The notes under the pieces are model-generated. The model saw only the letters and a program-made list of their open reading frames with translations, had not been told where the DNA came from and made no database searches. 44,056 nt of DNA, taken from contig DATMBA010000428.1 of assembly GCA_035559635.1 (NCBI GenBank), positions 1 to 44,056 on the forward strand. Reading direction: 5' to 3'. The position numbers and the translations under genes were made by a program. This DNA comes from Roseiflexaceae bacterium (GTDB taxonomy: Bacteria; Chloroflexota; Chloroflexia; Chloroflexales; Roseiflexaceae). Positions 23,647-44,056 of the stretch are shown one piece after another; within the stretch, counting starts at the first letter, position 1; each line of letters opens with the position of its first letter.

Positions 23647-24321
23647 ATGCACTTTCTCCTCACCTATCTCCGGTTCCATAGCGACAAAGTCCGGCTCTTC
23701 GGCCTGGCGGTGGTGCTCGTTCTGCTCGTCGCCCTGCTCGTGATGCTGCGCCCCGCCGCGGGCGGCCTCACGCCGCTTGGCGACGTGGGCGCGCCGCCCG
23801 CGGCCTCGGGCAACGCCACCGCCCCGTACGCCGCCGTCGCCCCTCCCGCGGTGCGTCCTGGGATGTACGACCTGCAAGCCGACCCTCGCAGCCGCGATGC
23901 AGCTGCGGCGGCTGCCCAGCCGGACCCGGAGCACCAGGACGCCGTGCTGGACGCACTCAACTGCGCGCGCGCCAGACAGAACCTGGCCGCGCTGCCACTG
24001 GACTCCGACCTCTCAGCGAGAGCCGCTGACCTTGGGCGCCTGCTGGCCGCTCACCCCGACACGTCCCTGGCCGAGTTGGCGGCTGCTGAACACTATGCGC
24101 TCGTTGTGGTGACCCCGCTCAGCTTCGCGGGCGCCGCCGATGAAGCGGATCCGGCCGTCCAGCAGCCGGCTGCCCCGAGTGGCCCCTGCGCCGTGGGCGG
24201 CTTCGACACCGCCCAGCTCGATCTTGCTGATGCCACTGCCGCGTTCGGCATCGCCGTCTTCCCCGACCCGCAGGGAGCGGAGGAGTGGGACGTCATGTCG
24301 GCAGTCATTCTCGCCAGGTAG
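23647..24321 (+). CDS. Membrane-anchored hypothetical protein (weak CAP/SCP-like motif)
   Basis: ATG 23647 lies after GGAGGA. TM segment LFGLAVVLVLLVALLVML. VLDALNCARARQNLAALPLDSDLSARA resembles the first CAP helix. First gene of the long plus-strand array. Confidence 0.65.
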   Translation: MHFLLTYLRFHSDKVRLFGLAVVLVLLVALLVMLRPAAGGLTPLGDVGAPPAASGNATAPYAAVAPPAVRPGMYDLQADPRSRDAAAAAAQPDPEHQDAVLDALNCARARQNLAALPLDSDLSARAADLGRLLAAHPDTSLAELAAAEHYALVVVTPLSFAGAADEADPAVQQPAAPSGPCAVGGFDTAQLDLADATAAFGIAVFPDPQGAEEWDVMSAVILAR

Positions 24322-24330
24322 CGCCACTCT

Positions 24331-26730
24331 ATGGGAGATGCCACGATGCAACGAACCGCTCATCCATCCCGCGCGGCGTTCTTCCTCCTCCTGCTGGCGT
24401 TGCTCGCCGGTGGGCTTTCCGCGCTTGCGCCACAACCACGGATCGTCGCAGCCGCCCCGCCGAGCGGCTGGGTGAAGGCTGACCGCGTGCGCGGTGGCTG
24501 CGACTCCGCCGGGCGCTGCAACAGTGACGTTACGCCGGGCAGCCCGACCCTCTACGAGTACCGTCCCGACCGGCAGGGCGTCGGCCGCGACTACAACGTC
24601 ACCAACACCCAGCTCGCCTATCACGGCGGACTGCCCACATTTGAGCACCGCGAGCGCTGCAACATCAATGGACGGGACCAGTACTGGTCCGCCGGTTCCT
24701 GGCACCACGGCGGCTACTGGACGCTGACCTACACCGCGAGCGGCGGTGAGCGCTGGATCGGCCCCTCGCGCGAGCACTGGGCGTTCTACCACAGCGATAG
24801 CTGCGATTCCGATCCCGCCGTTGATCGGACGGCAACGGCCATTGCGCGCGTTCCGACATCCACGCCGCCCGGCGGGGAGCTGACGCCGACAACCTGGCGC
24901 CAAGATGGAACAACGACGCCGACTTCTCCTCCTGTCATTCCAGGGACACGAACGCCAGCTCCTACCCTCACCCCGTTTCCCACCGCGACGGAAGTTCCCC
25001 CCTGCTTCGCGGAGCAGGCGCTGCCCACCGGCATGGGGATCGACGCCGTGCAGGGGAGCACCACGGTCAACTACCGCTCGCCGGTGGGCTACTACGTCTA
25101 CCCATCGTACTATCCCGACCAGCCTCCGGGCCTCTACGACGACGACGAGCCGCCGCCCTGGCCGCAGGACCGGGCGATGGCCCCCATCGCGGCAGGCCAG
25201 CCGCTTACCGTGCGCTACCACCTCAGCTCGGTGAGCATGAACAATCCGAAGGAAAACCCGCTGGAGCCCTTCACCCAGTGGGGCGCGGCCAAGATGTTCA
25301 TGTGGATCAAGGACCTGGGCGTCGACCTCGCCAGCAGCGCTGATGACCGCTACCTGTTCAACCTCGGCAGCGACGCGATCGGCCGTGAGGATGTCGAGAG
25401 CGGCAACACGATTGTCCAGGTGCAGCGCTGGGAGCTGGCGGACGGCGTCGAGGTGCTTGGGCCGCAGGAGTTCAGCAACTTCGATTGGGGCGCCGGCCAG
25501 TGGTGGGAGAAGTTGCACTCGCACGACCCGGGCCGCGGTGACTACGCGCCTGCCGACGACCAGCACTGGCCTGGGACGACGCCCATCCTGAACGGGAGCA
25601 TCCAGCGCGTCTACGTGCGTCATCCTGACACGATGGGTTTCCGCTTCGTGCCCGAGCCCGGCCACAGCTACGAGGTGATGTCGCGGGTCAATAAGAGCTC
25701 GTGCAGCTACTGGCAGTCGAACTACCGCCTGATGCGCCTCACCACGGTTGAGCCGATCGACATCGGCATCTCGATGAGTGTCCCGCGCATCACAACGCCC
25801 GGCTCCGCCATCACCTACCGGCTCACCTACGAGAACACGACCACTGAGCCCGGTAAGCCGTTCACGCTGACACACACGCTGCCGGACGGCGTGACGTTCC
25901 AGGATTCCAGCCGCCAGCCTACCCATCAGCGCGGGAACACGCTCACCTGGGACCTTCCCGCGCTGTATGGTCGCGACGATCCGCAGGGGCGCGTGTGGCG
26001 TGGCGAGATCATCGTCACCGCCACAGTTGTGCAGGGCGCGCCGGAGACGTTGCTGACCGTCGCCACCGTGGCGATGCCTGACGACAGCAACCCAACCAAC
26101 AACCGGGCCGAGGGTTCCACGCGCGTGGTGTACCTCCCGGCGCCGCAGGCGACGTTCCGCCTTCGCATCCATTCGGACCTCGACCCGCAGCACGGCATCT
26201 ATACCTCGAGCGGGACAGCGGTCAAGTGGCCGGCGAACGAGGTGATGGACTTCATGCCCGCCATCACGCTCGGGACACCCGCACAGCCCGCCGACGGCGC
26301 CTACCGGGTCACACACCGCATCGTTGCCTGGTCGCTCACGCAGGTGGGCAACACCCCCATCCGCGCCCCAGCGTGTAAGGCCGGCGCCGCGCCTTCCGGG
26401 TCCGACACGGCCGGCGCTGAGTTAGGCGGTCTGGAAGGATGCCACTACCGCTACATCTCCAACCCGACGGTAGCGGATATGCGTGGCATGGCGCACTCGT
26501 ACTGGTCCGAGACGCTGCCCGGCTCGATGCGGAGCGACGTGTATGTGTGGACGCCGCTGCCGCGCGGCCCGACGCAGTTGGTGCTCGCCTACGCTGTGCT
26601 GACGACGGCCCAGGAGAACGGGGTGGATGTGGACGGCGACGGCCGCACCAACTCGATCATTGCCCGCACCACCACCGTTACCGGCGGCGCGTTCCAGGTG
26701 ACTCTCCTCGCGCCCCGCAGCCGGCGTTGA
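24331..26730 (+). CDS. Large secreted protein with DUF11-like repeat domain (adhesin/pilus-associated candidate)
   Basis: Signal peptide AAFFLLLLALLAGGLSALA. Pro/Thr linkers. The segment ISMSVPRITTPGSAITYRLTYENTT...LPDGVTFQD...LTWDLPAL...ATVAMPDDSNPTNN follows the DUF11/CARDB-like pattern. Confidence 0.8.
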   Translation: MGDATMQRTAHPSRAAFFLLLLALLAGGLSALAPQPRIVAAAPPSGWVKADRVRGGCDSAGRCNSDVTPGSPTLYEYRPDRQGVGRDYNVTNTQLAYHGGLPTFEHRERCNINGRDQYWSAGSWHHGGYWTLTYTASGGERWIGPSREHWAFYHSDSCDSDPAVDRTATAIARVPTSTPPGGELTPTTWRQDGTTTPTSPPVIPGTRTPAPTLTPFPTATEVPPCFAEQALPTGMGIDAVQGSTTVNYRSPVGYYVYPSYYPDQPPGLYDDDEPPPWPQDRAMAPIAAGQPLTVRYHLSSVSMNNPKENPLEPFTQWGAAKMFMWIKDLGVDLASSADDRYLFNLGSDAIGREDVESGNTIVQVQRWELADGVEVLGPQEFSNFDWGAGQWWEKLHSHDPGRGDYAPADDQHWPGTTPILNGSIQRVYVRHPDTMGFRFVPEPGHSYEVMSRVNKSSCSYWQSNYRLMRLTTVEPIDIGISMSVPRITTPGSAITYRLTYENTTTEPGKPFTLTHTLPDGVTFQDSSRQPTHQRGNTLTWDLPALYGRDDPQGRVWRGEIIVTATVVQGAPETLLTVATVAMPDDSNPTNNRAEGSTRVVYLPAPQATFRLRIHSDLDPQHGIYTSSGTAVKWPANEVMDFMPAITLGTPAQPADGAYRVTHRIVAWSLTQVGNTPIRAPACKAGAAPSGSDTAGAELGGLEGCHYRYISNPTVADMRGMAHSYWSETLPGSMRSDVYVWTPLPRGPTQLVLAYAVLTTAQENGVDVDGDGRTNSIIARTTTVTGGAFQVTLLAPRSRR

Positions 26731-26806
26731 CCGGAACGACGGCGGCCGGGTTGCCCCCGGCCGCCGCCACACGAAGGACGACGTGTTCGAGGAAGGACAA
26801 GAGCCG

Positions 26807-27382
26807 ATGGTCTCACGTCTTCGCCACCACCGCGCCGCACCCGGACAGGCGCTTGTCGAGATGGCACTGACCTTCATGATCCTGATTGTGCTGATCTTCG
26901 GCGGCATCAGCGCGATGCAGATCCTGTCGGTGCAGTACACCGTCAATCAGGCGGTCCGCACCGCCGCTCACGAGGCGGCCCTGATGGGCTCGACCGGCGG
27001 CATGAAGCGCGGCCACGTCTACCTGCTCAGCGAGGCGCCCGGCCCGGTTGCCGAGGCCGCGCGCAACGTGCTCACGGGTGGCATCTTCACCACCGATCTG
27101 ACCAAGGCGACGATCACGGCCGGCTGCGACGCCGACCCTTGCCGGCGCTACAGCCCGATCACCGTGCAGCTGCGCTACGAGGACCAGACGATCGCTCCCA
27201 TTCCCGCCGTGCTCGAGCGCGTGGTTGCGGAGCGGGCCGCGACGCGCGCCTCCGAGAAGGACCAGCAAGCCGAAACGCTGAACGCTGAACGCTCAGGAAG
27301 GATCGTATGCGTGTGCCAACCAGACAAAGCTGTACGAACGACAAGCGCTCCGCACGGGAGATGGAGCAGTTGGACAGGATGA
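26807..27382 (+). CDS. TadE-like pilus assembly protein / pseudopilin
   Basis: ATG 26807 lies after GGAAGGA. The N-terminal motif GQALVEMALTFMILIVLIFGGISAMQI is a TadE signature. Its 3' end runs through a heptamer array. Confidence 0.8.
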   Translation: MVSRLRHHRAAPGQALVEMALTFMILIVLIFGGISAMQILSVQYTVNQAVRTAAHEAALMGSTGGMKRGHVYLLSEAPGPVAEAARNVLTGGIFTTDLTKATITAGCDADPCRRYSPITVQLRYEDQTIAPIPAVLERVVAERAATRASEKDQQAETLNAERSGRIVCVCQPDKAVRTTSAPHGRWSSWTG

Positions 27383-27440
27383 GCCTTCGGCGTTCAGCCT
27401 TTGACGTTCAGCGTTTAGCGTTCAGCCTTCAGCGTTCTGA
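27274..27440. repeat. Inverted heptamer arrays spanning the TadE-like gene junction
   Basis: AACGCTG AACGCTG AACGCTC at 27274-27294. The inverse CGTTCAG-type array lies at 27391-27440. They are about 95 nt apart. Confidence 0.75.
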
Positions 27441-27948
27441 CGGCCAGTCGCTCGTTATCCTGGCGCTCGTGTTGCCGTTCCTGGTCGCGCTGATCATGAT
27501 GGCGATCGAGGTCAGCACCCGGCTCCTGGAGGTCGCCGAGCTCGAGGATGCGCTGCGCCAGGCCTCCCGCTCCTCGGTGCAGCTGCTCGACTACGCGGCG
27601 CTCGCGGACAACGGGCAGCGTGTGGACGAGGAGCGTGTGATCGCCACCGCCAGAACGATGTTCCGCGTCAACCTGGGCAGCGTCCGTGGCCTGGATGAGC
27701 CGGTGGATGATCTGGTGGACCGTGTGTCGTGGCAGGTGCTCCCCGAAGGGGGCGCCTGCACGCTCCCTGGTGAGGGCGCGCTGGTCGCCGGACGGGCGCA
27801 GCGTGCGAACAACCAGTGGCAGGTGGAGTTCGATACACCCGCCGTCTGCGCCTCCGTTCGCCCGAAGCTCCACGGTCTGCTTGGCTGGGGCCAGTACATG
27901 CCGACGATCAACGCGGCCGAGACGCTCGATGTGCTGGTGGAGCCATGA
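27379..27948 (+). CDS. TadE/TadG-like pilus assembly protein
   Basis: ATGA overlap at 27379-27382. DGQSLVILALVLPFLVALIMMAIEV is a TadE/G-like N-terminal motif. An alternative ATG lies at 27361. Confidence 0.75.
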   Translation: MSLRRSAFDVQRLAFSLQRSDGQSLVILALVLPFLVALIMMAIEVSTRLLEVAELEDALRQASRSSVQLLDYAALADNGQRVDEERVIATARTMFRVNLGSVRGLDEPVDDLVDRVSWQVLPEGGACTLPGEGALVAGRAQRANNQWQVEFDTPAVCASVRPKLHGLLGWGQYMPTINAAETLDVLVEP

Positions 27949-28439
27949 GCGACACCCACGCCGCGATCGAGCGCCTGTACGACGCGGAGCGCCGCTCCAT
28001 GCTGGTGTTCCTGCGACGCATCGTCGGGAGCCCCGAGGCCGCCGAAGATCTGTGCCAGGACGCCTTTCTGAAGGCGCTCTGCGCCTGGCCGACGCGCGAC
28101 CCGCGGGCGAGCGTTCACGCCTGGCTGTACGAGATCGCCCGCAACGCGGCCTACGACTACCTGCGTGGCCAGCGCTACCGCCAGTCGCAGCCGCTCCACA
28201 CGCTCCCCTCGAGCGCGGCGGCGGTGCCATGGGACGAGCGCATCGTCGAGGCCGCGCCGGTCCACCAGGCGCTCGCCCAGATCCCGCCTGGCCAGCGTGT
28301 GCCGCTGGTCATGCAGGCCTGCGCCAATGCGCCCGTGCAGGACATCGCCCGCCGCCTGGGCTGCACCACCGGCACGGTTCACATGCGGCTGCAACGTGGC
28401 CGCGCCCGCTTTCGATCCGCCTTCGCCGCACTTAGCTAA
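27945..28439 (+). CDS. ECF-type RNA polymerase sigma-70 family factor
   Basis: ATGA overlap at 27945-27948. Region 2: EDLCQDAFLKAL...WLYEIARNAAYDYLR. Region 4: QRVPLVMQACANAPVQDIARRLGCTTGTVHMRLQRGR. Confidence 0.88.
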   Translation: MSDTHAAIERLYDAERRSMLVFLRRIVGSPEAAEDLCQDAFLKALCAWPTRDPRASVHAWLYEIARNAAYDYLRGQRYRQSQPLHTLPSSAAAVPWDERIVEAAPVHQALAQIPPGQRVPLVMQACANAPVQDIARRLGCTTGTVHMRLQRGRARFRSAFAALS

Positions 28440-28458
28440 CACGGAGGAACCAGCGGCC

Positions 28459-29439
28459 ATGTCGTTCGCATCGCAACCACTCTCCCAGGCGCTCACGCCC
28501 AAGAAGAGCAACCTCCCCATGGTCCTACTGCTCCTGGTCGGGCTCGTCCTGTGCCTCGGCGCGGCGGCCTACGGCTACGTAGAGAGCCGCCGCACCGAGC
28601 AGGTGGTCATCGCCGCCCGTGACATCCCCTACGGTCGCCAGATCGTCGCCGACGACCTGGCCGTGATCGAGCTGCCGCTGCACCGCCCGGTGCAGATCGC
28701 CGGCATCACCAACCCTGCGGCCATCATCGGCCAGTACGCCGCGCGCCAGATCGGCCCGAACGACATCGTGCAGGGCGCGATGCTGATGGCCGAGCCGCCT
28801 TCTGACCCGGTGTACCCGAACGGCGCGCGCCTCGGCCGCGACATGGTGCCGGTGCCCTTCGCGCTTGCCGCGCTCGGCCCGATCGCCGACCGCGACTTCG
28901 TGAACATCGGCTTCACGACGACGGACGCAACCCTCTGCGACCGCGAGCTGGCCGATGTGGTGCCCGGCACGGTGCTGCCGCCGCCCGTGCACATGGCCGC
29001 TGTCACCCAGCCCGGCGACGCGACCGCCGCTGGTGGCCCGCAGACACTGCCGCGCGCCTTTGCGTGTCGATTCATGTCGAACGTCCGCATCCTCTACATC
29101 GACGGCGACACAGCCTACCTGGAGATGACGCCGACCCAGGCACACGCGATGTGGGCGCTGAACGCCTCGGGTGTCTCGATGTGGGGCGAGCGCTACGGCT
29201 CGCACAGCACGCCGCTGCTGTACATGGACCGCCTGGATGCGGGCCAGATCACGCTGCCCGACATCACGCTCCCGGTCTCCGAGACGATCCGCATCGAGCC
29301 GGCGCTGGTCAATCCGGCCAGCGCCGAGACGACCGACGCGGCGGGCGCGGCGATCCCCGGCGCCACTACCCAGATCCCGGGCAGCGACGCGTCCGCTGAC
29401 GAGAGCGCGGACGGAACGAGTGACACCGCCGCGCCCTAA
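28459..29439 (+). CDS. CpaB/RcpC-like Flp pilus assembly protein (SAF domain)
   Basis: ATG 28459 lies 9 nt after GGAGGA. N-terminal TM, then VVIAARDIPYGRQIVADDLAVIELP (SAF-like). Ala/Thr/Asp-rich tail. Confidence 0.75.
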   Translation: MSFASQPLSQALTPKKSNLPMVLLLLVGLVLCLGAAAYGYVESRRTEQVVIAARDIPYGRQIVADDLAVIELPLHRPVQIAGITNPAAIIGQYAARQIGPNDIVQGAMLMAEPPSDPVYPNGARLGRDMVPVPFALAALGPIADRDFVNIGFTTTDATLCDRELADVVPGTVLPPPVHMAAVTQPGDATAAGGPQTLPRAFACRFMSNVRILYIDGDTAYLEMTPTQAHAMWALNASGVSMWGERYGSHSTPLLYMDRLDAGQITLPDITLPVSETIRIEPALVNPASAETTDAAGAAIPGATTQIPGSDASADESADGTSDTAAP

Positions 29440-29481: not shown

Positions 29482-30699
29482 GTGGCTATGACCGTCGCAG
29501 ATCTCGCATCAACCACCCTCAGCGCCGCCGTTATCGAGCGACTGGAAGAGCTGAGGTTGCGCCAACAATCGGGGCGGCTTTGCCACTGGCAGCGTGGCGT
29601 CACGGAGACGCTGCAGCGCGCCGGGCTCGGTGAGGGCTACACCCTCGCGGAGTGGGCTGAGATGCCCTGGTATGGCCCGCTGGAGCAGTGGCGACACCCC
29701 GGCTCCGGCGTCTCCGACATCATCATCAACGGCCCCGAGCGGGACATCATCGTCGTGGAGCGCGGCAACCGCACCTTTACCGGCGTCACGCTCCACCCGG
29801 AGTGGGTGCAATTCGTGCAGCGCCAGCTCACGATGCGTGCGGGCTTCACAACCCCGCAGGCGCCCGACGACTGGCGCACCCCAACCGGTGGCGTCACGCA
29901 CGCGCTCATCGGCTCGGCCGATCGTCGGCTTCGATTCGCCGTCACACGTCCCCCAGCGACCCCGGACGGCGCGACCGTCTCGATCCGCATCCTGCCCGAC
30001 CGCTGGCGTACGCTCGACGACCTGGTTCACCAGGAGAGTGGCATCATGCCCCGCCAGGCCGCCGAGTTGCTCGTCGCGGCGGTGCTGGGCGGCGCGACCG
30101 TGCTGGTCGCCGGCGACACCGGGAGCGGAAAGACCACGCTGACGGCGGCGCTGCTCCAGGCGGTAGGCGAGCACAAGCGGGTCATCATCATCGAGGACGC
30201 CCGCGAGTTGCCGCCGGTCGCGGACAGCATCTCGATCGAGGTGCTGCACAGCGGGATGAGCTTTGTAGAGTGCGTGCGCCTGACGCTGCGCCAGCGCCCG
30301 GACCTGATCGTCTGCGGCGAGGTGCGCGGCCCGGAGGCGCTGGCGATGCTCCAGGCAGCCGCCACCGGCCACCCCGGCATCTGTACCATCCACGCCCCCG
30401 ATGTGCAGACGGCGCTCCGCAACCTGGAGCGCCACGCGGCCAGCTCCGGTGAGGTTCCGCCCCAGATGGTGCGTGGCCTAATGACCTCTGGCGCGGTGCC
30501 GCTTGTGGTCTGTCACGTCGGCGTCGTGAACGGTCGCCGCACCGTAACCAGTATCGATGAGGTCATCACGACCGGCGGCTGCGGGAACGTCGGTGACCGG
30601 TACACCGTGAACCCACTCTACGGTTTCAACCCGGCGTCGGGCCGGGTGGAGAAGCATCGCAGCACCGTCCAGGGCGCCTGGGCCAAAGGGCGCTTCTAG
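29482..30699 (+). CDS. CpaF/VirB11-family secretion ATPase (T2SSE)
   Basis: Walker A VAGDTGSGKTT. Asp box IIIEDARE. Walker B/His box RQRPDLIVCGEVRGPEA ... TGHPGICTIHA. Confidence 0.92.
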   Translation: MAMTVADLASTTLSAAVIERLEELRLRQQSGRLCHWQRGVTETLQRAGLGEGYTLAEWAEMPWYGPLEQWRHPGSGVSDIIINGPERDIIVVERGNRTFTGVTLHPEWVQFVQRQLTMRAGFTTPQAPDDWRTPTGGVTHALIGSADRRLRFAVTRPPATPDGATVSIRILPDRWRTLDDLVHQESGIMPRQAAELLVAAVLGGATVLVAGDTGSGKTTLTAALLQAVGEHKRVIIIEDARELPPVADSISIEVLHSGMSFVECVRLTLRQRPDLIVCGEVRGPEALAMLQAAATGHPGICTIHAPDVQTALRNLERHAASSGEVPPQMVRGLMTSGAVPLVVCHVGVVNGRRTVTSIDEVITTGGCGNVGDRYTVNPLYGFNPASGRVEKHRSTVQGAWAKGRF

Positions 30700-36334: not shown

Positions 36335-36362
36335 GCGCATGCCCGGAGATCCTGAGCGATGA
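36144..36362 (+). CDS. Second excisionase-type HTH (HTH_17-like) protein
   Basis: WVSLTEAAALYRVSTRTMSDWVIGRGWMPYVRRGRCVLVPQAPLVAAL. ATGA-coupled to the next gene at 36359. The start is uncertain (ATG 36144 or an in-frame GTG near 36190). Confidence 0.6.
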   Translation: MGKQPRCRVLPTSQTWVSLTEAAALYRVSTRTMSDWVIGRGWMPYVRRGRCVLVPQAPLVAALKRMPGDPER

Positions 36363-37060
36363 GGACGCAGCGACCGCGCATCCGACGCCGCCAGAGCGAC
36401 ACGGCTGCGGTCGAGACCACGCCAGAACCCACCGCCACCTTAACCGGCCTGGTGGTGGAGTGGCTGGCCTCCCGCCCGGTGGTCGATCGGATAGCTGCAG
36501 CGCTGTTGCGTTACCCGCGCGTGCTGATGGCCATGGCGGGGGTGCTTGGCGCACTGCTGGTCATCGGGGCGCTGCTGCCGCTGCTCGCCCCAGCTGCGGC
36601 GCCGCGCCCGGCCGCTGGCGTTGCATCGGTGGCCGCGTCTCCCGTCACGCCAACGCCACCTGCCGCGCCCGATGCGCAGCGGGCGGTGCTGGCGGTCATC
36701 ACCAGCTACAACCAGGCGAGTATCTCGGCGGGGCTGCTGATGCGCCCCGATCTGCTGGCCCCCTACCTGGCCCCCGATGGTGAGGCGTGGATGGCGGTGC
36801 AGGCCGAGTACGAGCGGCGGCAGGCCCGCGGCGAGACGGCTGACGCCGCGCTCACGCGCTGGGGCGTGCTGCAGATCCAGGTTGCGGATGACACGGCTAC
36901 GGTGGTGACGCAGGAGCAGTGGGACGTGGTCACGAGCGTGGGCGGCGAGGTGATCAGCAGTCGTCGCGGGGTGCTCACCCGCAACGCCTACCGGCTGCGC
37001 CGCTCGCCGACCGCCGGGTGGCTGATCGTGTCGGTCGAGTCGATGACCCTTGTGGCATGA
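36359..37060 (+). CDS. Bitopic membrane protein with NTF2-like (DUF4101/IMS-like) C-terminal domain; VirB8-analogue candidate
   Basis: TM VLMAMAGVLGALLVIGALLPLL, a Pro/Ala linker, then AVLAVITSYNQASISAG...YLAPDGEAWMAVQAEYERRQARGE...VLQIQVADDTATVVTQEQWDV. Confidence 0.7.
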   Translation: MRTQRPRIRRRQSDTAAVETTPEPTATLTGLVVEWLASRPVVDRIAAALLRYPRVLMAMAGVLGALLVIGALLPLLAPAAAPRPAAGVASVAASPVTPTPPAAPDAQRAVLAVITSYNQASISAGLLMRPDLLAPYLAPDGEAWMAVQAEYERRQARGETADAALTRWGVLQIQVADDTATVVTQEQWDVVTSVGGEVISSRRGVLTRNAYRLRRSPTAGWLIVSVESMTLVA

Positions 37061-39776
37061 GGAAGCATTGCAGCATCGTTTCACACACCGTCTCCTCGCG
37101 ACGCTGGCCCTGACGCTGGCGCTCCTGACCATGCTCCCTGCGCCGCAGGCGTTTGCAGACGCCCCCGGCACGCGTGGGGACGACGATCAGCCCAAAGGCA
37201 GCACGACCCAGCCCGCTGGCGATGCGGCGAACGTGGGTGGCCAGGGGAGCATAGGGGGTGCTACCGGATGGCAGGGGGTGCAGATGCTCCCGCCGCCGTC
37301 CGCGTCCCTTGCCCCAATCGGCGCGCCGACCCGCTACGCCCCGCTCGCGCAGGACGCAGGTAGTGACCGCAGCCTCCCCTGGCTCAGCCGGGAGCTGAAC
37401 CCCGGCAACTGGATTCTCGACGCTGGCATGGGCATCTTCACGGGCCTGGTGGCCGCCGGCGGCGAGATGCTGCAGCACCTGGTCGCCTCCACGCTGGGTG
37501 GCGGGGATAGCTCCGCGGCCAAGAGCATGGGGCCGCCCACGTCCGACCAGTGGTCGGTCATCCCTTCGAGCTGCGCCGACGGGGCGGCGCAAAACTTCGT
37601 CTTCTGCACCCCGCCAAGCCTGACCTACCAGCACCCGGGCATCAAGAACGTCTGGGGCGTGCTGCGCGCCGTCGCCACGGCCCTCGTCACGGTGCTGTTC
37701 CTGGTGCGGATCGGCCGGATGATCGGCGAGGGGCCGCGGGCGCTGGCGCAGGAGGGCAAGCCGCTCGTGATGACCTTCGTATTCGTGATGCTGTTCGTCC
37801 AGTCCACGGAGTACACCTGCGGCTTCCTCATCGACCTCTTCAACGCCATCAGCAGCAGCATCCTGGCCAACGCGAGCTTCTCCTTCCCCGCGGTGAGCGA
37901 CACGCCGTTTGAGTTCGGGGCGCGGTTCATGGGCGCCTTCTTCTGGCTCCTGATGCTCTTCCTGATGCTCAAGAGCTTCTTCCGCATCGTCAACATCGCC
38001 GTGCTCATCGGTGTGGCGCCGCTCGCGGGCGCGCTGCTGATGGACAAGGCGACGTCGAGCCGCTTCCGCTCGTGGCTGGACAAGCTGATCGAGTCGCTGC
38101 TGGAGCAGATCGCGGTCATCATCGTCTTCACAGTCGCGACGGCGATGCTCGCGCCGATCCAGGGCGCGGGCGGCGGCGACATGATGGTGCAGTTTCTCAT
38201 GGGCTCGGCGACGATGGTGATGGCGCTGTTCGGGCCGAGCGCGATGATCGGCATCGCCAGCAACGTCAGCGGCGGCTACCTGGCCTCAATGCTCCAGATG
38301 CGGATGATCGGCGGGGCGCAGAAGGTGGCGAAGGCCGGAGCTGTGGCGGGCACCGCGGCGGCGATCGCCGGCGTGCGTGCGGCGTCCAGCGCCATCCGGG
38401 CCCAGGGCGGCGACCCGACCCTCAGCGCGGCCGCCAAGCGTATGGCGGACACGGTGGGGCTGCGCGTCGGCAAGGACGACGCAGGTCGCCAGAACCACGT
38501 CGCGTTCCGTATGCCCGAGATCGAGACCTCCCGTGGTGGCAGGGAGAACGCCACGCTGGCGCGCTACGAGCGCGCCCGCCAGGTCGGGGGCGAGGACGCC
38601 ATGCGGCAGCGGGCCGGGATCCGGGCGCGGGCCATGCTCGCGCAGGCCGATGGCCTCTCGCGCGCCGGCCATCACGACGCGGCGAACCGGATGCGTGGCC
38701 GGGCTGGACTCCAGCGGGCGTTCGCCAACGGCCAGGACATCAGCCGCACACCGCGCTGGGGGACCGGCCGCCGCGACCTGGCCACCGGCCGGTTGGCCGT
38801 CTCCGCGCGCGGGGCGGAGCGCCGCGCGATCTACGCCCACGCGCTCGAGGAGACGAAAGCCCGGCACCTCGCCGAGCAGGGCACGCTCAAGGACTCCATC
38901 GCCGCCGATCAGAAGATCCTGGCGGCCGAGGCACAGCCGGGGACCGAGGCGGACCGCCGCGCCGCGGCCGAGCGCGTGCGCGCGAACCAGGCCCGTCTCG
39001 CGTCCCTGACCCAGACGAAGGACGGCGCGGGGAACAAGCTGAGCGTGGCGCCCATCACCCGCCGCGAGGCTGCGGCGCTGGCCAAGGAGCGCTGGGCGCA
39101 GCGCGAGGCCGCACGCCCAGCGCGCTCCTCGATCACCACGCGCCGCTCTCCCGCACAGACGGCCGCTGGGGGGCGGCCCACACTGCGTCGCGTACCGCGC
39201 TCCACGACCACGCGTCCGGCGCTGACGCGAGGGGGCGCGGGCGGGGGTAGCCCACAGGTGGCATCGGCCCGCGCCCAGCGGAACGGCAGCGGCTCAGCTA
39301 TGCCCCTCAGCACCGGGGTGGCGCGTATCCAGGCGCGGGCGGGTGCGGTCGCCGCCCACCACCAGCAGCGCGCAACTGACGCCGCCGCGCGCATGCGTGC
39401 GCTGGGGCAGCAGGCGCGCGCAGTCGAGCCGACGGACGCTGCCGGCGCCGCCGAGCTTCGCCGGCAGATGTTCGAGGTGCGGCGACAGATGCGGCGGCAC
39501 GAGGCGCTGCGCTCCCGAGCGGCCGGCATCGCTGGCGACGCCTCCTGGCAGCGCCCGTCGTCGGGACGCACGCCCGACGAGTTGGCCCGCCGCCGCGAGG
39601 CGTTCAAGGCCATCCGGTCGGAGGTCCGCGACATCGCCGCGCGCGGCAACCTGCTCCCCGAGACGGCCGCAACGCCGGAGGAGCGGGCGCGCCGGGCCGA
39701 GTTGATGCGGCAGTCGATACGCCACCTGGCGCACGAGCGGCTGGGCGACCTCGCCGAGCCGACCAAGCGGTCGTAG
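37050..39776 (+). CDS. VirB6/TrbL-like polytopic membrane protein with long basic low-complexity C-terminal tail
   Basis: Signal-like N-terminus LLATLALTLALLTMLPAPQAFA. Six or more TM segments (e.g. FFWLLMLFLMLKSFFRIVNIAVLIGVAPLAGALL). The tail from about residue 440 is Arg/Ala-rich. Confidence 0.7.
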   Translation: MWHEEALQHRFTHRLLATLALTLALLTMLPAPQAFADAPGTRGDDDQPKGSTTQPAGDAANVGGQGSIGGATGWQGVQMLPPPSASLAPIGAPTRYAPLAQDAGSDRSLPWLSRELNPGNWILDAGMGIFTGLVAAGGEMLQHLVASTLGGGDSSAAKSMGPPTSDQWSVIPSSCADGAAQNFVFCTPPSLTYQHPGIKNVWGVLRAVATALVTVLFLVRIGRMIGEGPRALAQEGKPLVMTFVFVMLFVQSTEYTCGFLIDLFNAISSSILANASFSFPAVSDTPFEFGARFMGAFFWLLMLFLMLKSFFRIVNIAVLIGVAPLAGALLMDKATSSRFRSWLDKLIESLLEQIAVIIVFTVATAMLAPIQGAGGGDMMVQFLMGSATMVMALFGPSAMIGIASNVSGGYLASMLQMRMIGGAQKVAKAGAVAGTAAAIAGVRAASSAIRAQGGDPTLSAAAKRMADTVGLRVGKDDAGRQNHVAFRMPEIETSRGGRENATLARYERARQVGGEDAMRQRAGIRARAMLAQADGLSRAGHHDAANRMRGRAGLQRAFANGQDISRTPRWGTGRRDLATGRLAVSARGAERRAIYAHALEETKARHLAEQGTLKDSIAADQKILAAEAQPGTEADRRAAAERVRANQARLASLTQTKDGAGNKLSVAPITRREAAALAKERWAQREAARPARSSITTRRSPAQTAAGGRPTLRRVPRSTTTRPALTRGGAGGGSPQVASARAQRNGSGSAMPLSTGVARIQARAGAVAAHHQQRATDAAARMRALGQQARAVEPTDAAGAAELRRQMFEVRRQMRRHEALRSRAAGIAGDASWQRPSSGRTPDELARRREAFKAIRSEVRDIAARGNLLPETAATPEERARRAELMRQSIRHLAHERLGDLAEPTKRS

Positions 39777-39779
39777 GCC

Positions 39780-42700
39780 ATGAGCGAGGAGCGCCAGCCA
39801 GCAACGGACCGTGCTGCACAGGCCGCAGCACGGGCTGCCGCGCAGCACGCGGCGCGCCAGGTGAGCGAGCACGTCGCGCGCAGCGCGATGTCGCGGCTCG
39901 CCAGCACGGCCGCGGCGCGCGGTCTCTCAGCCCTGCTGTTCAAGGCAGGCGGTGTGGCCGGCGCGAAGGTGATCGCCATCGGCGCGATCATTGCCGTGGT
40001 GATGGTGCTGGTGGTCGGCCTGATCTTCCTCATCCTCAGCGCCATCGGCGCGGGGTTTCAGGCCACGACGGCGGTGTGGCCGGTGCCTGCCGATGTGCGT
40101 GAGGACGGCACCTACCGGGCGGGGGGGTGGGCGATCTCCAGCCGGTTCGGCTGGCGCACCGGCCCCTTCACACAGCAGGCCGAGTTTCACGACGGGATCG
40201 ACATCGTGAACCCGAGTGGCGGCTGCCCGTTCGGCCACCGCTGTGCGCTGCCCGCAATGTTCGACGGCGTGGTGGAGTACGTCGGCTGGGACCAGACCGG
40301 CACGGGCGACCCAGCCACGATGGGCGGCGGGCAGATCGTCATCGTCGAGAACGGGCAGGAGGACCACAAGACGCTCTACGCGCACCTGGAGCCCTACCGG
40401 CTGCACGTCCAACTCCAGGGCAAGATCGAGGACGACTACGGGCGCTACGACGACTTCGCCGGCTACCAGGCCATCGGGCAGGGCGATCTCACGCCCGACC
40501 TGGACAACGGCGGGATCGAGATGTGGTGCGCGCTGGAGATGCCAGGCTTCCGCCCGACCCGGACCGGCCCCGGCACCGTCACCTTCGAGTACGACCGGCC
40601 GGCGCAGTGCCGCACCTCCGTGGTGTGGGGCCAGAAGGGCGACGGCTGGGAGGGCTGGACGGCTGACGACCCGCCCGCCGACGCGAAGGGCCGCGCGACA
40701 CTCGCCTGGCAGACTCCTGTCGAGACCGGGAAGCGAGCCGGGGACGTGGCGCTGCGCTTCCGCGCCCACCTCGTGCCGCCCCCGCCGCCGCCCACCAACG
40801 TCCCCACGCCGGGCGTGGGTGTGCCGGGCGACGGCGCGACGGACCCCGGCTCACCCGGCGACCAGGGCAATGGGCCACAGGGCCGCGCGCCGCCCACTGG
40901 CGGGCGGGGCGGAGTCGCGCACGGCTGGAACCAGCGCGCGCCCGGCGCAGCGCACACCGGGCAGCCCGCGCGTTGCGAGCGCCAGACTAACGGCGTGCGC
41001 TGTGTGTGGCGGATCGCGGACATCCCGACCGCGGCCGAGCGCGCGGCGCAGGCAGCGCCGGCTGCGACGCCGGTGGCAGAAGCGGGGGGCGTCACGTCGC
41101 GCGACGTGGCGTTCCAGCAGGCGCTGACGCCGACCAGCACGGTCGTGTCCGCCTCGCCGACGCCGGCGGCGACCCGCACCCCGGTCCTGATGCTTGCCTC
41201 CACGGCCTCGCGCACGAGCCTGCCGACCGGCGGGCGCTTCAGCGTCTCGGTCTCAGTCTACAACGATGGGAGTGGGACGGCGACCCCGGTCACGGTCAGC
41301 GGCGAGGGGGCGCTGACCGTGCTGGGGGCAACCGCGTCGAATGGGACGTGTACGGCCGGCGGCGCATCGGCGAGCTGCACCGTCAGCGCGGGCGCGGGCA
41401 TGCCGGCGACGATCACGGTCTCCTTCGAGGTGCTCCCCGGCAACCCGGCGTATGCTCGGCTCGCGATCACGGGGCAGGCGACAGCGGGGGCGCGGCACGC
41501 GCAGACGCGGGTGTTCATCGAGGTGGCGCCGTACGCGGTGACGCCGGGGCCCTGGCCACCGCCGCCCCCGCCCCCGCCCCCGACCTGGACGCCGTTCCCG
41601 ACGAGCGAGCCGGTGTGGCCCACGATCGACCCGAACGCGACGCCGCTCCCCAACGCCACGCCGACGCCGATCCCGCCGGGCGAGGGGCCGGGCAGCAGAC
41701 CAGTGAGCTGCGCGCCGCAGGCGCTGGTGCAGCTGCCGAACGTGGTCAACGCCTACGGGCGCACCGATACCACGCGGCTGATCAGCCCGGCCGCCGCCGC
41801 CTTTCAGGAGGCGCGGATGGAGATCATCGGGATGACCGGCCAGGACCCGCTCGCGCGGCTGGCGGACGCCCTGCGCGCCCCGGAGTTTCGCACCGACAAG
41901 CCGGGCGTCGCCCGCATGTCGTGGCATATGACCGGGCGGGCCATCGACCTGAACACCGGCTATCCATGGCGCCGGGTGCCGGAGGGCCGCTACTGGCGGC
42001 TCTACCTGGGCGCGGTGGACGCGACGGCGATCTTCGCCCGGCACGGCTTCACGCGCATCCCCGATCGCTCGGACTCCACAGAGTGGTGGCACTACGAGTA
42101 CCGCGTGGACGGCATCTCGTGGGCGAGCGCGATGCTGCAGGTCTACCCCACCCAGCGCCTGATCGCCGCGTTCCCCGACGTCGCCTGGGCGAGCATCGGC
42201 TGCCAGCGCGGCGGCGACGGCGCCGTGATCGCGCCGCTGCCGGGCGACCTGGACATGTGTGTGGCTGGCTCGCCGTCGTTCGGCTCGGCCGTCGAGGAGA
42301 TCTCGGGCTGCGGCCCGCCGGTCCACGCCGGCGACAAGGTCTACACGCTCGACAGCACGCTCGGCTTCGTGGGGATGACTGGGCAGACGACTGGCCCGCA
42401 CCTGCACCTCGGGCTGCAGGTCAAAAGCTACGACGGGATATACCGCCAGACCGACATCTGCACGCCCGAGTGGCTCCAGGGGCTCACGCCCCCGCCCGAC
42501 GCCAACTGCTGGACGGAGATGGCCGACCCGGAGGCGTTCCTGCCGCACGCTCCGCCGCCGGAGGCCGTCGCCGGGAGCGAGAAGGCGCTCCCGGGGAGCA
42601 CCCCGACGGCGGTCATTCCCGAAGGAGCGCCCTACCAACTGCCGCCGCCGAACTACCCCGGCTCGCTGCTCGAAGAGCCGGCGCCGAACGCAACGCCCGT

Positions 42701-42821
42701 TGGCCAGTACTGGTCGCCGTTCGAGGACGGCGGGCAGTATGGCGGTGGCGGCGCCCTGGAATGGTTTACCAACACCACCTGTGGGGCCTGGTCCGGCTTC
42801 CCCTGGTGCGCCAATCGCTAG
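39780..42821 (+). CDS. Membrane-anchored multidomain cell-wall hydrolase (M23-like + M15/VanY-like LAS peptidase modules, DUF11-like domain)
   Basis: TM at about residues 60-90. M23 N-terminal motifs SSRFGWRTGPF...FHDGIDI...LYAHL (HxxxD at 40188-40202). Poly-Pro linkers. DUF11-like segment FSVSVSVYNDGSGTATPVTV. M15 motifs SWHMTGRAIDL (41919-41951) and EWWHYEY. M23-type GMTGQTTGPHLHLG (HxH at 42399-42407). Confidence 0.85.
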   Translation: MSEERQPATDRAAQAAARAAAQHAARQVSEHVARSAMSRLASTAAARGLSALLFKAGGVAGAKVIAIGAIIAVVMVLVVGLIFLILSAIGAGFQATTAVWPVPADVREDGTYRAGGWAISSRFGWRTGPFTQQAEFHDGIDIVNPSGGCPFGHRCALPAMFDGVVEYVGWDQTGTGDPATMGGGQIVIVENGQEDHKTLYAHLEPYRLHVQLQGKIEDDYGRYDDFAGYQAIGQGDLTPDLDNGGIEMWCALEMPGFRPTRTGPGTVTFEYDRPAQCRTSVVWGQKGDGWEGWTADDPPADAKGRATLAWQTPVETGKRAGDVALRFRAHLVPPPPPPTNVPTPGVGVPGDGATDPGSPGDQGNGPQGRAPPTGGRGGVAHGWNQRAPGAAHTGQPARCERQTNGVRCVWRIADIPTAAERAAQAAPAATPVAEAGGVTSRDVAFQQALTPTSTVVSASPTPAATRTPVLMLASTASRTSLPTGGRFSVSVSVYNDGSGTATPVTVSGEGALTVLGATASNGTCTAGGASASCTVSAGAGMPATITVSFEVLPGNPAYARLAITGQATAGARHAQTRVFIEVAPYAVTPGPWPPPPPPPPPTWTPFPTSEPVWPTIDPNATPLPNATPTPIPPGEGPGSRPVSCAPQALVQLPNVVNAYGRTDTTRLISPAAAAFQEARMEIIGMTGQDPLARLADALRAPEFRTDKPGVARMSWHMTGRAIDLNTGYPWRRVPEGRYWRLYLGAVDATAIFARHGFTRIPDRSDSTEWWHYEYRVDGISWASAMLQVYPTQRLIAAFPDVAWASIGCQRGGDGAVIAPLPGDLDMCVAGSPSFGSAVEEISGCGPPVHAGDKVYTLDSTLGFVGMTGQTTGPHLHLGLQVKSYDGIYRQTDICTPEWLQGLTPPPDANCWTEMADPEAFLPHAPPPEAVAGSEKALPGSTPTAVIPEGAPYQLPPPNYPGSLLEEPAPNATPVGQYWSPFEDGGQYGGGGALEWFTNTTCGAWSGFPWCANR

Positions 42822-42884
42822 TTTCGCACCGCACGGTGCATCGCCGCTACGTCGTCGCAGGACATCGAAGGAGACACTACCGCC

Positions 42885-43193
42885 ATGCACGCCCTCACCC
42901 TTATCGCCAACATGCTGCCGCACGTCGATCTTGCCAGCAGCCTCCCGCTGTTCCACGTGTTCGCCGGCCCGCCGATCAACCCGGACAAGATGATCATCGA
43001 GATCGCCGACTGGCTGGTTAAGATCCTGGCGGCGGTCGGCTTCCTGTTCCTGATCATCGACCTGTTCAAGCACGTCGTCTCGTCGCCGCGCGACCTGGGC
43101 GCGGCTGGCAAGGACATCTTCGTGATGTGCATCCTGCTGGCCGTCGCAGCGAGGGCGCAGGACATCGTCACCTGGGCGCAGGGCCTGCTGTAG
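42885..43193 (+). CDS. VirB2/TrbC-like small membrane protein (pilin-like candidate)
   Basis: ATG lies after AAGGAGA. 102 aa with two hydrophobic helices (ILAAVGFLFLIIDLF; IFVMCILLAVAA) after a leader-like N-terminus. Confidence 0.5.
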   Translation: MHALTLIANMLPHVDLASSLPLFHVFAGPPINPDKMIIEIADWLVKILAAVGFLFLIIDLFKHVVSSPRDLGAAGKDIFVMCILLAVAARAQDIVTWAQGLL

Positions 43194-43204
43194 CGGAGGC
43201 CCCG

Positions 43205-43576
43205 ATGCTGCAGGCATACATCCCCCGCAACCTGCGCGTTCGCGCGTCGGTCCAGATCGCCAGCCAGCGTGTCCCGGCCAAGGGGTTCATCCTGGTCGCT
43301 GGCGTCGTGTTCATCGGTGGCATGCTGGTCGTCTTCGGCACGGATCTGGAGCGGGTCGTGTGGGTGGTCGGGATCATCGTGGCCATCGGCCTGATCGTCA
43401 TCGAGGGGCGGCTGTGGGGCCGCTCCTCGCAGGAGATCGCGCGGATCGTGATGCGGCACTACCGTCGCTCGCGCCGCCTCCGACGCGCGCCCATCACCCT
43501 CACGCTGCCTCCTGAGGCTGCCAGCACGAGCGTCGCCGCCCGCCGGCCGCGCTGGATGGAAGAAGGTTCATCATGA
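43205..43576 (+). CDS. PrgI/VirB3-like small membrane protein
   Basis: ATG 43205 lies after GGAGG (internal start of ORF 43127..43576). The N-terminus YIPRNLRVRASVQI...KGFILVAG is followed by two TM helices, and the gene sits directly before a VirB4-like gene. This is the typical PrgI layout. Confidence 0.55.
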   Translation: MLQAYIPRNLRVRASVQIASQRVPAKGFILVAGVVFIGGMLVVFGTDLERVVWVVGIIVAIGLIVIEGRLWGRSSQEIARIVMRHYRRSRRLRRAPITLTLPPEAASTSVAARRPRWMEEGSS

Positions 43577-44056
43577 GCGATGTCGAGCTGCGCAGGCTGT
43601 TCCCAACGCAGATTATCCGGGGGGCGCTGCTGCGGCCGGATGGGGGAGCAGTGGGCCTGGTGACGGGCGGGGCGCCGGCCTGGGATCTCCTGGCCCTGGA
43701 GGCGCGCGACCAGGCCGGGGCCGACTACCACCGTCTGCTGCTCGCCCTGGACACCCCGGTGGATGTCTACGTGGTGGATCACCCCCCGGACCTCACCGGG
43801 GAGATCGCGACGCTTCACGAGCGGCAGCGCCGGGCCACGCACCCGCTGATGGCCGACGTGCTTGACGAGATCGCCGGCTACCTGGCCGAGCTGGCCCAGC
43901 AGACCGGGAGCCGCGCCAAGCAGGTGGTCTGGACGGTGACGGCGGGTGGCAGCGCGGCCGCGACGGCGGCCCGCGGCGTCGGCGGGCTTGATCTGACGGC
44001 GCTGCTCCAGCGCGGCGGCCCCGTGAAGGCGACCGGCCCTTCGCCGGCCGGGCGCG
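43573..44056 (+). CDS. VirB4-like conjugation ATPase, N-terminal fragment (continues beyond window)
   Basis: ATGA overlap at 43573. The frame stays open to the window edge, so it is absent from the ORF track. GLVTGGAPAWDLLALEARDQAGADYHRLLLALDTPVDVYVV matches the N-terminal pattern of monoderm VirB4/TrsE proteins. The Walker motifs would lie downstream, outside the window. Confidence 0.5.
   Translation, partial: MSDVELRRLFPTQIIRGALLRPDGGAVGLVTGGAPAWDLLALEARDQAGADYHRLLLALDTPVDVYVVDHPPDLTGEIATLHERQRRATHPLMADVLDEIAGYLAELAQQTGSRAKQVVWTVTAGGSAAATAARGVGGLDLTALLQRGGPVKATGPSPAGR

Follow-up and report, generated by a model that had tools for sequence, protein, structure and literature searches.

The window analysed here, 44,056 nt of contig DATMBA010000428.1 from the Roseiflexaceae bacterium assembly GCA_035559635.1 (Chloroflexota), carries a gene cluster in which components resembling a Tad-type pilus are followed by components resembling a type IV secretion system (T4SS). 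The main array of the cluster comprises ~19 co-directional genes on the plus strand and runs from position 23647 to the right edge of the window (Table 1). The original prediction, made from the letters of the window and their open reading frames (ORFs), regarded this array as a candidate hybrid Tad/T4SS apparatus for mating-pair formation on a recombinase-bearing integrated element. The co-directional array was borne out, and all six of the predicted start/stop overlaps are present, namely ATGA at 27379, 27945, 32024, 36359 and 43573, and GTGA at 34084. Families were assigned by Pfam and NCBIfam scans of the window proteins; all NCBIfam matches lie below the curated cut-offs. The closest relatives of the window are metagenomic sequences and metagenome-assembled genomes (MAGs) of Roseiflexus, Roseiflexaceae and other Chloroflexota; where individual related loci have to be distinguished, they are designated by numbers beginning with L or P.

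Table 1. Features of the window discussed in the text. Numbers following family names are E-values; TM, transmembrane segment.
Position	Strand	Feature	Evidence and remarks
13487..15337	-	Large serine recombinase	Pfam Resolvase 1.9e-19, Zn_ribbon_recom 1.3e-11
13571..13663	+	tRNA-Sec gene	Rfam RF01852, 71 bits, E 1e-12; ARAGORN concurs
20903..21595	+	CAP/SCP-domain secreted protein	Pfam CAP 3.8e-13
21915..23094	+	IS4-type transposase pseudogene, frameshifted	DDE_Tnp_1_assoc and two DDE_Tnp_1 halves in two overlapping ORFs; GC 0.51
23647..24321	+	Membrane-anchored protein, family-less	One predicted TM; early cluster gene, conserved
24331..26730	+	DUF11-repeat secreted protein, 799 aa	Pfam DUF11 9.4e-8
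26783..27382	+	TadE-like (pseudo)pilin	Pfam TadE 1.4e-8
27379..27948	+	Second TadE-like protein	Pfam TadE 1.5e-3, weak, below cut-off; conserved in relatives
27945..28439	+	ECF-type (extracytoplasmic function) sigma factor	Sigma70_r2 6.8e-17, r4_2 3.3e-11
28459..29439	+	CpaB/RcpC-like SAF-domain protein	SAF 2e-9; NCBIfam pilus_cpaB (TIGR03177) 3.7e-9
29482..30699	+	TadA/CpaF-type ATPase (T2SSE superfamily), 405 aa	T2SSE 4.2e-33
30762..32027	+	ParA/MinD-type ATPase, TadZ/CpaE-like	AAA_31 3.6e-8, CbiA, ParA; NCBIfam CpaE_hom_Actino 1.4e-5
32024..34087	+	Second TadA-type ATPase, 687 aa, with C-terminal extension of ~300 aa	T2SSE 3.8e-25
34084..35052	+	TadB-like inner-membrane platform protein, GspF/PilC fold	AlphaFold2 model and Foldseek
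35082..35897	+	Polytopic membrane protein in TadC position	No Pfam match; last gene of Tad block
35900..36334	+	ORF without family match, overlaps next ORF	No Pfam match; call uncertain
36144..36362	+	Small HTH_17 (MerR/excisionase-type) DNA-binding protein	HTH_17 4e-4, weak
36359..37060	+	Bitopic membrane protein in VirB8 position	One TM; conserved extracytoplasmic domain of ~125 aa; first gene of T4SS block
37050..39776	+	TrbL/VirB6-like polytopic membrane protein	TrbL 1.4e-3 (weak for the window protein alone)
39780..42821	+	Membrane-anchored cell-wall hydrolase	M23 6e-9, DUF11, M15_4 weak; TM at 49-100
42885..43193	+	Small protein, leader and two hydrophobic helices	VirB2/TrbC-like topology; conserved in alignment
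43202..43576	+	Small two-TM protein in PrgI/VirB3 position	TM prediction, alignment of homologues; ORF opens at 43127
43573..44056 (edge)	+	VirB4 N-terminal-domain gene, first 161 codons of a ~225-aa gene	Profile match to fused VirB4

The 5′ part of the cluster encodes surface proteins and the components of a Tad-type machine. The DUF11-repeat protein is a candidate surface adhesin or tip protein. Its gene precedes the TadE genes in relatives as well, and in L048 and L049 the same position is occupied by an SdrD_B/CLIPPER (PF01345) adhesin of >1400 aa. The membrane-anchored protein encoded immediately upstream (23647–24321) is 28% identical to a 245-aa protein of L020 (E 2e-8). It had been called CAP-like, a label that is unsupported since the protein has no Pfam or NCBIfam match and the real CAP-domain gene is located further upstream, at 20903–21595. 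Homologues of the latter occur at the 5′ end of the cluster in relatives, as tblastn matches upstream of the DUF11 gene in L020, L022, L023, L026 and L034. Of the two proteins predicted to be TadE/G-like, the first is supported by its Pfam match, and the match of the second is weak. The first carries a class-III-type signal, G/QALVEM, followed by a hydrophobic helix, a motif that occurs nowhere else on the strand of the cluster. At the start of the second gene (27382–27437), a 14-nt unit (AGCCTTCGGCGTTC-like) is repeated in tandem in about four copies and encodes a repetitive ‘SAFDVQR’-type N-terminus; the L020 homologue has an N-terminus of this type too.

The calls of an ECF sigma factor, CpaB, CpaE/TadZ and two CpaF/VirB11-type ATPases all agree with the family matches in Table 1. 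The ORF of the SAF-domain protein opens at 28165, and its exact start is uncertain. The 405-aa ATPase additionally matches the NCBIfam models TrbB_P (7e-39) and TIGR03819 (5e-36), and its closest plasmid homologues are annotated as CpaF family; the 687-aa ATPase matches TIGR03819, ‘TadA family conjugal transfer-associated ATPase’, with an E-value of 1e-32. The TadB call holds at the fold level. The protein has no Pfam T2SSF match; its AlphaFold2 (AF2) model, based on 38 homologues, has a pLDDT (predicted local distance difference test) of 88.6, and the top nine Foldseek matches in PDB are cytoplasmic domains of EpsF, OutF and PilC, with probabilities of 0.94–1.0, template modelling scores of 0.66–0.73 and weak E-values (0.3–1.6). 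Many of its homologues are named TadB by JGI. Profile searches of PDB with the TadB and TadC candidates were empty, and hhalign comparisons of TadB versus TadC candidates, and versus the TadB protein of an Embleya plasmid (see below), were negative. The TadC-position protein was aligned by hhalign with the Embleya T2SSF protein over 155 columns, with a probability of 6%.

The T4SS-like block begins with the gene of a bitopic membrane protein, which adjoins the TrbL-like gene in all relatives compared; judging from its size, position and topology, the protein is a candidate NTF2/VirB8-like component. The VirB6/TrbL assignment of the following gene holds at the family level. Among its homologues, 11 of 22 match TrbL_4 (best E 5.5e-7) and nine of 22 match TrbL in Pfam, and the matches of the shorter homologues in L048 and L049 to TrbL_4/TrbL are not flagged as weak or faint. 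The product in the window has a long Arg/Ala-rich C-terminal tail (~500 aa). The next gene had been predicted to encode an M23+M15 hydrolase, in agreement with its M23 match, weak M15_4 match and N-terminal TM segments. Its M23 domain is split: profile positions 2–58 are found at residues 136–211 and positions 57–90 at residues ~848–882, and the insertion of ~640 aa between them carries a DUF11 repeat and M15_4. The hydrolases of relatives combine M23 with NlpC/P60, and the hydrolase gene of L001 is called as two ORFs (389 and 638 aa). Two genes for small proteins with two hydrophobic helices follow. The first product has no Pfam or NCBIfam match, and hhalign of the second against two PrgI proteins was negative.

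The last gene reaching the edge of the window had been taken for the start of a VirB4-like gene. This was correct in substance, but the ORF is not the beginning of a long gene; it is a separate gene of ~225 aa. Homologues of this ORF (n = 171) are nearly all stand-alone proteins of 210–250 aa, and in every relative with enough contig the ~225-aa gene is followed, often with an overlapping start, by a gene for a VirB4-like ATPase of 617–631 aa. The ATPase of relatives matches conju_CD1110 (E 1.4e-61, model positions 184–735 of 752), TraC and VirB4_CagE, as well as the C-terminal domain of VirB4 in PDB (4ag5, E 1.3e-14), and has a weak match to the DNA import protein CedB (2.2e-6). VirB4 is the best-conserved protein compared between the related loci, with 68–95% identity. 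In a fused VirB4 of 938 aa, residues ~16–209 match the profile of the ~225-aa family (hmmsearch E 9.6e-4) and residues 296–849 are VirB4-like; hhalign aligns the family with this fused protein over 183 columns, with a probability of 94.6% and an E-value of 7e-8. Since the ~225-aa family aligns to the N-terminus of a fused VirB4 and the ATPase gene comes next, VirB4 is encoded here by two genes, one for its N-terminal domain and one for the ATPase. In the window, the ATPase domain is placed beyond the edge from the next gene of relatives. The hhalign comparisons of the ~225-aa protein with an XF1762 protein and with two Gram-positive VirB4 N-termini were negative, and its AF2 model has a pLDDT of 54. 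An exhaustive profile search of 1.84 billion representative proteins yielded only 56 relatives of the ~225-aa protein, the fused 938-aa VirB4 being one of them.

For the analysis of synteny, loci of three collections were searched with the window proteins by tblastn. The conserved gene order in the 5′ half is (unknown protein, CAP)–DUF11–TadE–TadE–SAF–ATPase–ParA–ATPase–TadB-like–membrane protein, and that in the 3′ half is 233-aa protein–TrbL-like–hydrolase–small–small–~225-aa protein–VirB4. The Tad and T4SS blocks were found in this same order in >25 Chloroflexota loci, with protein identities to the window of 36–80%; it is kept wherever the contig allows in L001, L003, L004, L008–L015, L020–L028, L034, L048 and L049. 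In a scan of one genome per GTDB species, the family was found only in nine MAGs, assigned to Roseiflexus, Roseiflexaceae and Chloroflexota. The distance matrices of the two blocks, calculated for 16 loci, are correlated with r = 0.91 (Mantel test, 0 of 2000). The blocks thus co-diverge, which speaks against the separate phylogenies that would have counted against the original proposal.

The spacing at the junction of the two blocks is tight: the genes overlap in the window and in L004, and are separated by 15 nt in L003. A consensus scan of this junction was uninformative, with no promoter-like sites and with terminator-like sites at chance level. Two excisionase-type helix-turn-helix (HTH) proteins had been predicted here. 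The product of 36144–36362 has a weak HTH_17 match and is probably a regulator, whereas the ORF at 35900–36334 has no Pfam match and is possibly another small HTH gene. The junctions of L048 (4e-5) and L049 likewise carry HTH_17 genes, two small ones in the case of L049. The ECF sigma gene of the window had no tblastn match in other loci. An ECF sigma gene occurs within the cluster in at least two lineages at differing positions, in the window between the genes of the second TadE-like and SAF proteins, and in the P0052 locus between the 235-aa VirB8-position gene and the TrbL-like gene. The small HTH_17 proteins and the movable ECF sigma factor are likely regulators.

The DNA downstream of VirB4 is visible in four loci and in a group of Roseiflexus-type loci. 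There the cluster ends after VirB4; a gene of 97–105 aa, or the family-less genes of 432 and 635 aa, may come next, and unrelated genes (Rex, SnoaL/MOSC, histidine kinase, nSTAND and VanW) lie beyond. The downstream flanks are partly common to Roseiflexus MAGs, and in one relative ligA and tRNA-Asn genes are located upstream of the cluster. Scans of window proteins and of downstream proteins, as well as the Pfam tables of the related loci, revealed no relaxase family and no coupling protein (VirD4/TcpA/FtsK-like), in line with the caveat of the original prediction, which noted the absence of both from the window. As neither protein was seen in any related locus examined, and as the cluster gives way to unrelated genes where downstream DNA is visible, a label of conjugative mating-pair formation is unwarranted on present evidence, and that part of the proposal is not supported.

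In the Roseiflexus-type loci (L003, 15079–18281; L005 and L008–L015), VirB4 is followed by two further conserved genes. The first encodes a single-TM protein of 432–462 aa and the second a protein of 635–934 aa with N-terminal TM helices and a conserved C-terminal domain containing the motifs ‘GGKA’ and ‘LLIVLVEPD’. Neither protein had a family or structure match, and the loci most closely related to the window, L004 and P0052, have neither gene. The 635-aa Roseiflexus protein was considered as a degenerate FtsK-type coupling protein; this candidate was dropped, as Pfam, PDB profile search, tblastn against plasmids and hhalign with the FtsK protein of pXO1 did not support it.

The left part of the window differs from the cluster in composition. 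The GC content of the whole window is ~70%. Bases 1–13144 contain ordinary chromosomal genes, among them those for Lon protease, a Ser/Thr kinase, PP2C and a VWA protein. They are followed by a tRNA-Sec gene and a large serine recombinase gene, whose tail (the last ~60 codons) runs antisense across the tRNA gene. The overlap had raised the possibility of a false positive of ARAGORN, which was ruled out by the Rfam match. Just upstream of tRNA-Sec, a 39-nt sequence is present in two copies (13141–13179 and 13334–13372), which are 82% identical and 193 nt apart. Immediately to the right of the recombinase tail and tRNA gene the GC content falls, and a lower-GC stretch (0.60–0.66) extends over ~10 kb (~13.6–23.6 kb), compared with 0.67–0.74 in the left flank and 0.68–0.75 in the cluster from 23647 to the edge. 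It contains HTH regulators, a P22 antirepressor-like gene, the CAP-domain gene and the remnant of an IS4-type transposase. The tRNA-Sec gene marks the left border of the lower-GC stretch and is a likely integration site. The tRNA-Sec gene, the recombinase and the drop in GC together look like an island inserted at selC, and the recombinase adjoining the tRNA does indicate an integrated element. A direct-repeat search identified no copy of the tRNA-Sec 3′ end (attR-like repeat) elsewhere in the window, therefore attR, if it exists, is located further right.

The cluster was not confirmed to be part of this element. The recombinase and its neighbouring genes have no tblastn match in loci L001–L041, which places the serine recombinase outside the conserved cluster. 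Within Roseiflexus, part of the flank downstream of the cluster is conserved. The IS4-type pseudogene lies between the CAP-domain gene and the remaining cluster. Since the order in relatives is unknown protein, CAP, DUF11, whereas in the window the transposase splits off the CAP gene, the window shows a local rearrangement.

The combination of Tad and T4SS genes is not unprecedented, and the claim that no described class has this composition was overstated: mixed loci have been described for pXO1 and the Listeria monocytogenes island LGI1 (PMC2834635) and for linear plasmids of Cutibacterium acnes (PMC5696575). LGI1 combines cpa and tad genes with virB4, virD4, virB11, virB5 and virB6 and additionally encodes an adhesin, an ECF sigma-24 factor and a hydrolase (Gilmour et al., PMC2834635); it was likened by its authors to the pXO1 system (PMC2834635). 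In the C. acnes plasmids, a VirB4/TcpC/FtsK conjugation-like locus is located directly upstream of the tad locus (PMC5696575). On Bacillus anthracis pXO1 we found genes for an AAA ATPase, a CpaF/VirB11-type protein and a membrane protein and, ~13 kb further on the same strand, for PrgI, a hypothetical protein and a DUF87/VirB4 protein; the plasmid also carries an FtsK-type translocase and a replication-relaxation family protein. The Embleya plasmid (NZ_CP108778.1), whose VirB4 is the closest plasmid homologue, encodes PrgI, VirB4, a type IV coupling protein (T4CP) and a replication-relaxation family protein, and a complete Tad locus comes ~5 kb further on.

As in the Chloroflexota cluster, the mixed loci (pXO1, LGI1, C. 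acnes, Embleya) have a CpaF/VirB11-type ATPase, a ParA-like protein, a platform protein and TadE on the same strand as VirB4- and VirB6-like proteins, a hydrolase and a PrgI-like protein (in the cluster a candidate by position), and LGI1 shares with it the ECF sigma factor, the adhesin and the hydrolase. They differ from it in several respects. The known loci reside on plasmids or islands, most of them with a VirD4- or FtsK-type coupling protein, whereas the cluster yielded neither a relaxase nor a coupling protein. The blocks of pXO1 and Embleya are 5–13 kb apart, while those of the cluster abut with overlapping genes. The cluster is further distinguished by the split VirB4, by the two TadA-type ATPases, one of which is long-tailed, and by its Chloroflexota host, in which the downstream flank is partly conserved among Roseiflexus MAGs. 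The identity of VirB4 to that of the known mixed loci is low (22–29%). Literature searches on Chloroflexi or Roseiflexus in connection with Tad and T4SS turned up no account of this cluster. The cluster is thus set apart by blocks that abut and share overlapping genes, by the lack of any DNA-processing gene among those found, by its two-gene VirB4 and pair of TadA-type ATPases, and by its occurrence in a phylum for which the searches gave no system of this kind.

Each block was also compared with systems of its own type. The Tad block resembles the Tad/Flp systems (Aggregatibacter tad, Caulobacter cpa and actinobacterial systems) in having TadE with a G/xxxxE-type signal, a CpaB-like SAF protein, a TadZ/CpaE-like protein, TadA/CpaF and a GspF-fold platform. 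In contrast to these systems, no Flp major pilin, TadV/CpaA or secretin was found in the cluster, which has two ATPases, one with the ~300-aa C-terminal extension, and encodes platform proteins too divergent for Pfam T2SSF. The T4SS block shares with the Gram-positive systems (CD1110/CD1112, pCF10 Prg, pIP501 Tra, ICEBs1 Con) a VirB4 nearest to the CD1110 family with small two-TM proteins encoded just upstream of it, a TrbL/VirB6-like protein and a wall hydrolase anchored in the membrane; its order is reminiscent of VirB6, PrgI, VirB4 and hydrolase on plasmids of Gulosibacter and Clostridium botulinum. Unlike in these systems, no VirD4/TcpA or relaxase was found in the cluster, the N-terminal domain of VirB4 has a gene of its own, the VirB6-like protein has an Arg/Ala-rich tail of ~500 aa, the hydrolase has a split M23 domain, and homology to PrgI and VirB8 is not demonstrable.

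Machines related in layout or in function offer further comparisons. In IncI1 R64 (thin type IVb pilus with a Tra/Trb T4SS) and in PAPI-1, a single element encodes both a pilus and a T4SS, and the pilus serves as a mating-pair stabiliser or adhesin, which is the functional model that the original prediction proposed for the cluster. R64 and PAPI-1 differ from the cluster in being diderm systems with type IVb rather than Tad pili, separate operons, and proven conjugation with relaxase and T4CP. Helicobacter pylori ComB and archaeal Ced are relaxase-less importers that consist of a VirB4-family ATPase with polytopic and small membrane proteins and have no T4CP. ComB is a diderm system, and in Sulfolobales the Ced importer works together with a type IV pilus (Ups). 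The match of the cluster ATPase to CedB is weak (2.2e-6), and DNA import by the cluster would be an analogy. The thin pilus of R64 is cited in PMC4027160.

On balance, and with moderate confidence, we favour the interpretation of the conserved Chloroflexota cluster as two modules arranged head to tail, probably as one transcription unit, the first of Tad type and the second a minimal monoderm T4SS. Module 1 (~20.9–35.9 kb) would be a secretin-less Tad-type (type IVc) pilus machine made up of the CAP and DUF11 surface proteins, two TadE-like (pseudo)pilins, the CpaB-like protein, two TadA/CpaF ATPases, the ParA/TadZ-like protein, the TadB-like platform and the second membrane protein. Module 2, from 36.36 kb to past the edge, would be a minimal monoderm-type T4SS consisting of the bitopic VirB8-position protein, the TrbL/VirB6-like channel, the M23/M15 hydrolase, two small two-helix proteins and the two-gene VirB4. 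In such an arrangement the Tad filament would make contact with a surface or another cell, the hydrolase would open the cell wall, and the VirB4/VirB6 channel would pass a macromolecule across the envelope. The composition, gene order, conservation and co-divergence of the two modules are observed directly in these loci. A functional coupling of the two blocks is plausible.

Several observations weigh against this interpretation, and some of them favour the view that the blocks are functionally independent, long-standing neighbours, namely a Tad pilus used in adhesion or motility and a relaxase-less, possibly decaying T4SS-like remnant. The original proposal of a hybrid array is supported in so far as the blocks are collinear, tightly spaced, conserved as a unit and co-diverging, but the Tad block also stands alone. 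In a sister clade (L031–L033 and L037–L040, ~50% identity in the long ATPase) the whole Tad block is present and the T4SS block is absent; the second membrane protein is the last of the block, and the genes beyond it are unrelated, for instance GT87 on the opposite strand, PASTA and VanW. The 687-aa-type ATPase is present in both clades. Moreover, most of the T4SS block, from the TrbL-like through the ~225-aa gene, is missing from L017 and L018, and the junction admits insertions that differ between loci: the window, L048 and L049 have HTH_17 genes there, L004 an HD-domain gene, L001 a methyltransferase gene on the opposite strand and P0052 an ECF sigma gene. The distribution of the two blocks indicates that they are modular. 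Co-divergence is not proof of coupling either, because any vertically inherited neighbours would show such a correlation. Within the modules, no Flp-type small ORF was found in the window and none was seen in L020, and no A24 prepilin peptidase (TadV/CpaA) was found in the window proteins scanned or in the Pfam tables of related loci, as the original prediction had cautioned for the window; the TadE-like protein itself may be the pilin, and the peptidase could be encoded elsewhere in the genome. The TadC-, VirB8-, VirB2- and PrgI-like calls fit in size, position and topology and have no statistical support. All the same, collinearity is strict in >25 loci down to ~36% identity, the genes meeting at the junction overlap or nearly abut, and the blocks co-diverge, all of which speaks against mere neighbourhood; decay of the T4SS block is argued against by VirB4, since this is the best-conserved protein compared. 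We consider functional independence of the blocks rather unlikely.

Two structural details of these variant loci should be recorded. Loci L031–L033 and L040 contain an additional 1.5–2.5 kb between the gene of the 687-aa-type ATPase and the TadB-like gene, with ORFs of 480–566 aa that have no Pfam match. In L017 and L018 (3990–6772), the VirB8-position gene directly precedes a truncated VirB4 ATPase gene, and the TrbL-like, hydrolase, two small and ~225-aa genes are gone.

Two further explanations assign the cluster a role in DNA transfer. It could be the mating-pair-formation apparatus of an integrative and conjugative element (ICE) inserted at tRNA-Sec, with the relaxase, the coupling protein and attR past the right edge. 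A genuine tRNA-Sec gene adjacent to a large serine recombinase and followed by lower-GC DNA with regulators and an insertion sequence (IS) remnant fits such an element, as does the lack of a second tRNA 3′ end in the window, which would put any attR further right, and there are precedents with T4CP and relaxase in LGI1 (PMC2834635) and the Embleya plasmid, pXO1 having an FtsK-type translocase and a replication-relaxation protein. However, wherever the downstream DNA of relatives is visible the cluster ends after VirB4 or after the small or family-less genes, and then unrelated genes follow; neither the Pfam tables nor the protein scans contain a relaxase or T4CP family; the recombinase and its neighbours are unmatched in L001–L041; the downstream flanks are partly conserved among Roseiflexus MAGs; and in GC content the cluster matches the left flank and not the 13.6–23.6 kb stretch. 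An ICE at this site with the cluster as its transfer apparatus is thus quite improbable. Alternatively, by analogy with ComB or with Ups and Ced, the cluster might be a relaxase-independent machine for DNA uptake or cell-to-cell exchange that would use the Tad pilus to catch DNA or a partner cell and the VirB4/VirB6 channel as the route for DNA import or export. A very well conserved VirB4 in a cluster where no relaxase or T4CP was found would be in line with this, together with the weak CedB match of the ATPase (2.2e-6) and the requirement of Tad/Flp pili for transformation of Micrococcus luteus (as cited in PMC5696575). Yet no ComEC, ComEA or DprA is seen in the cluster, the CedB match is far weaker than the matches to conjugative VirB4 proteins, and the argument is purely analogical, which makes dedicated DNA uptake or exchange highly improbable.

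A bolder extension of the two-module interpretation would unite the Tad and T4SS blocks in one relaxase-independent machine that exchanges or imports DNA or another macromolecule between filamentous Chloroflexota cells. The Tad filament would then provide the contact and the split-VirB4/VirB6 channel the conduit, and the cluster would represent a bacterial counterpart of Ups plus Ced in a single operon. We regard this combination as speculative and improbable.

Tad pili and T4SSs are mostly regarded as distinct machines. Monoderm plasmids and islands with mixed loci have been on record for >15 years, and the accounts consulted here leave the link between the two gene sets open. Among the loci compared, the Chloroflexota family is the cleanest natural case: the blocks abut, overlap translationally and co-diverge deeply, with no relaxase or coupling protein found nearby. 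The Tad-only sister clade and the variant with a partly lost T4SS block form a natural comparison set for it. If the two modules cooperate, the cluster would show how a type IV filament can be recruited to a minimal T4SS channel in a single-membrane cell, and would point to a function of T4SSs other than classical conjugation.

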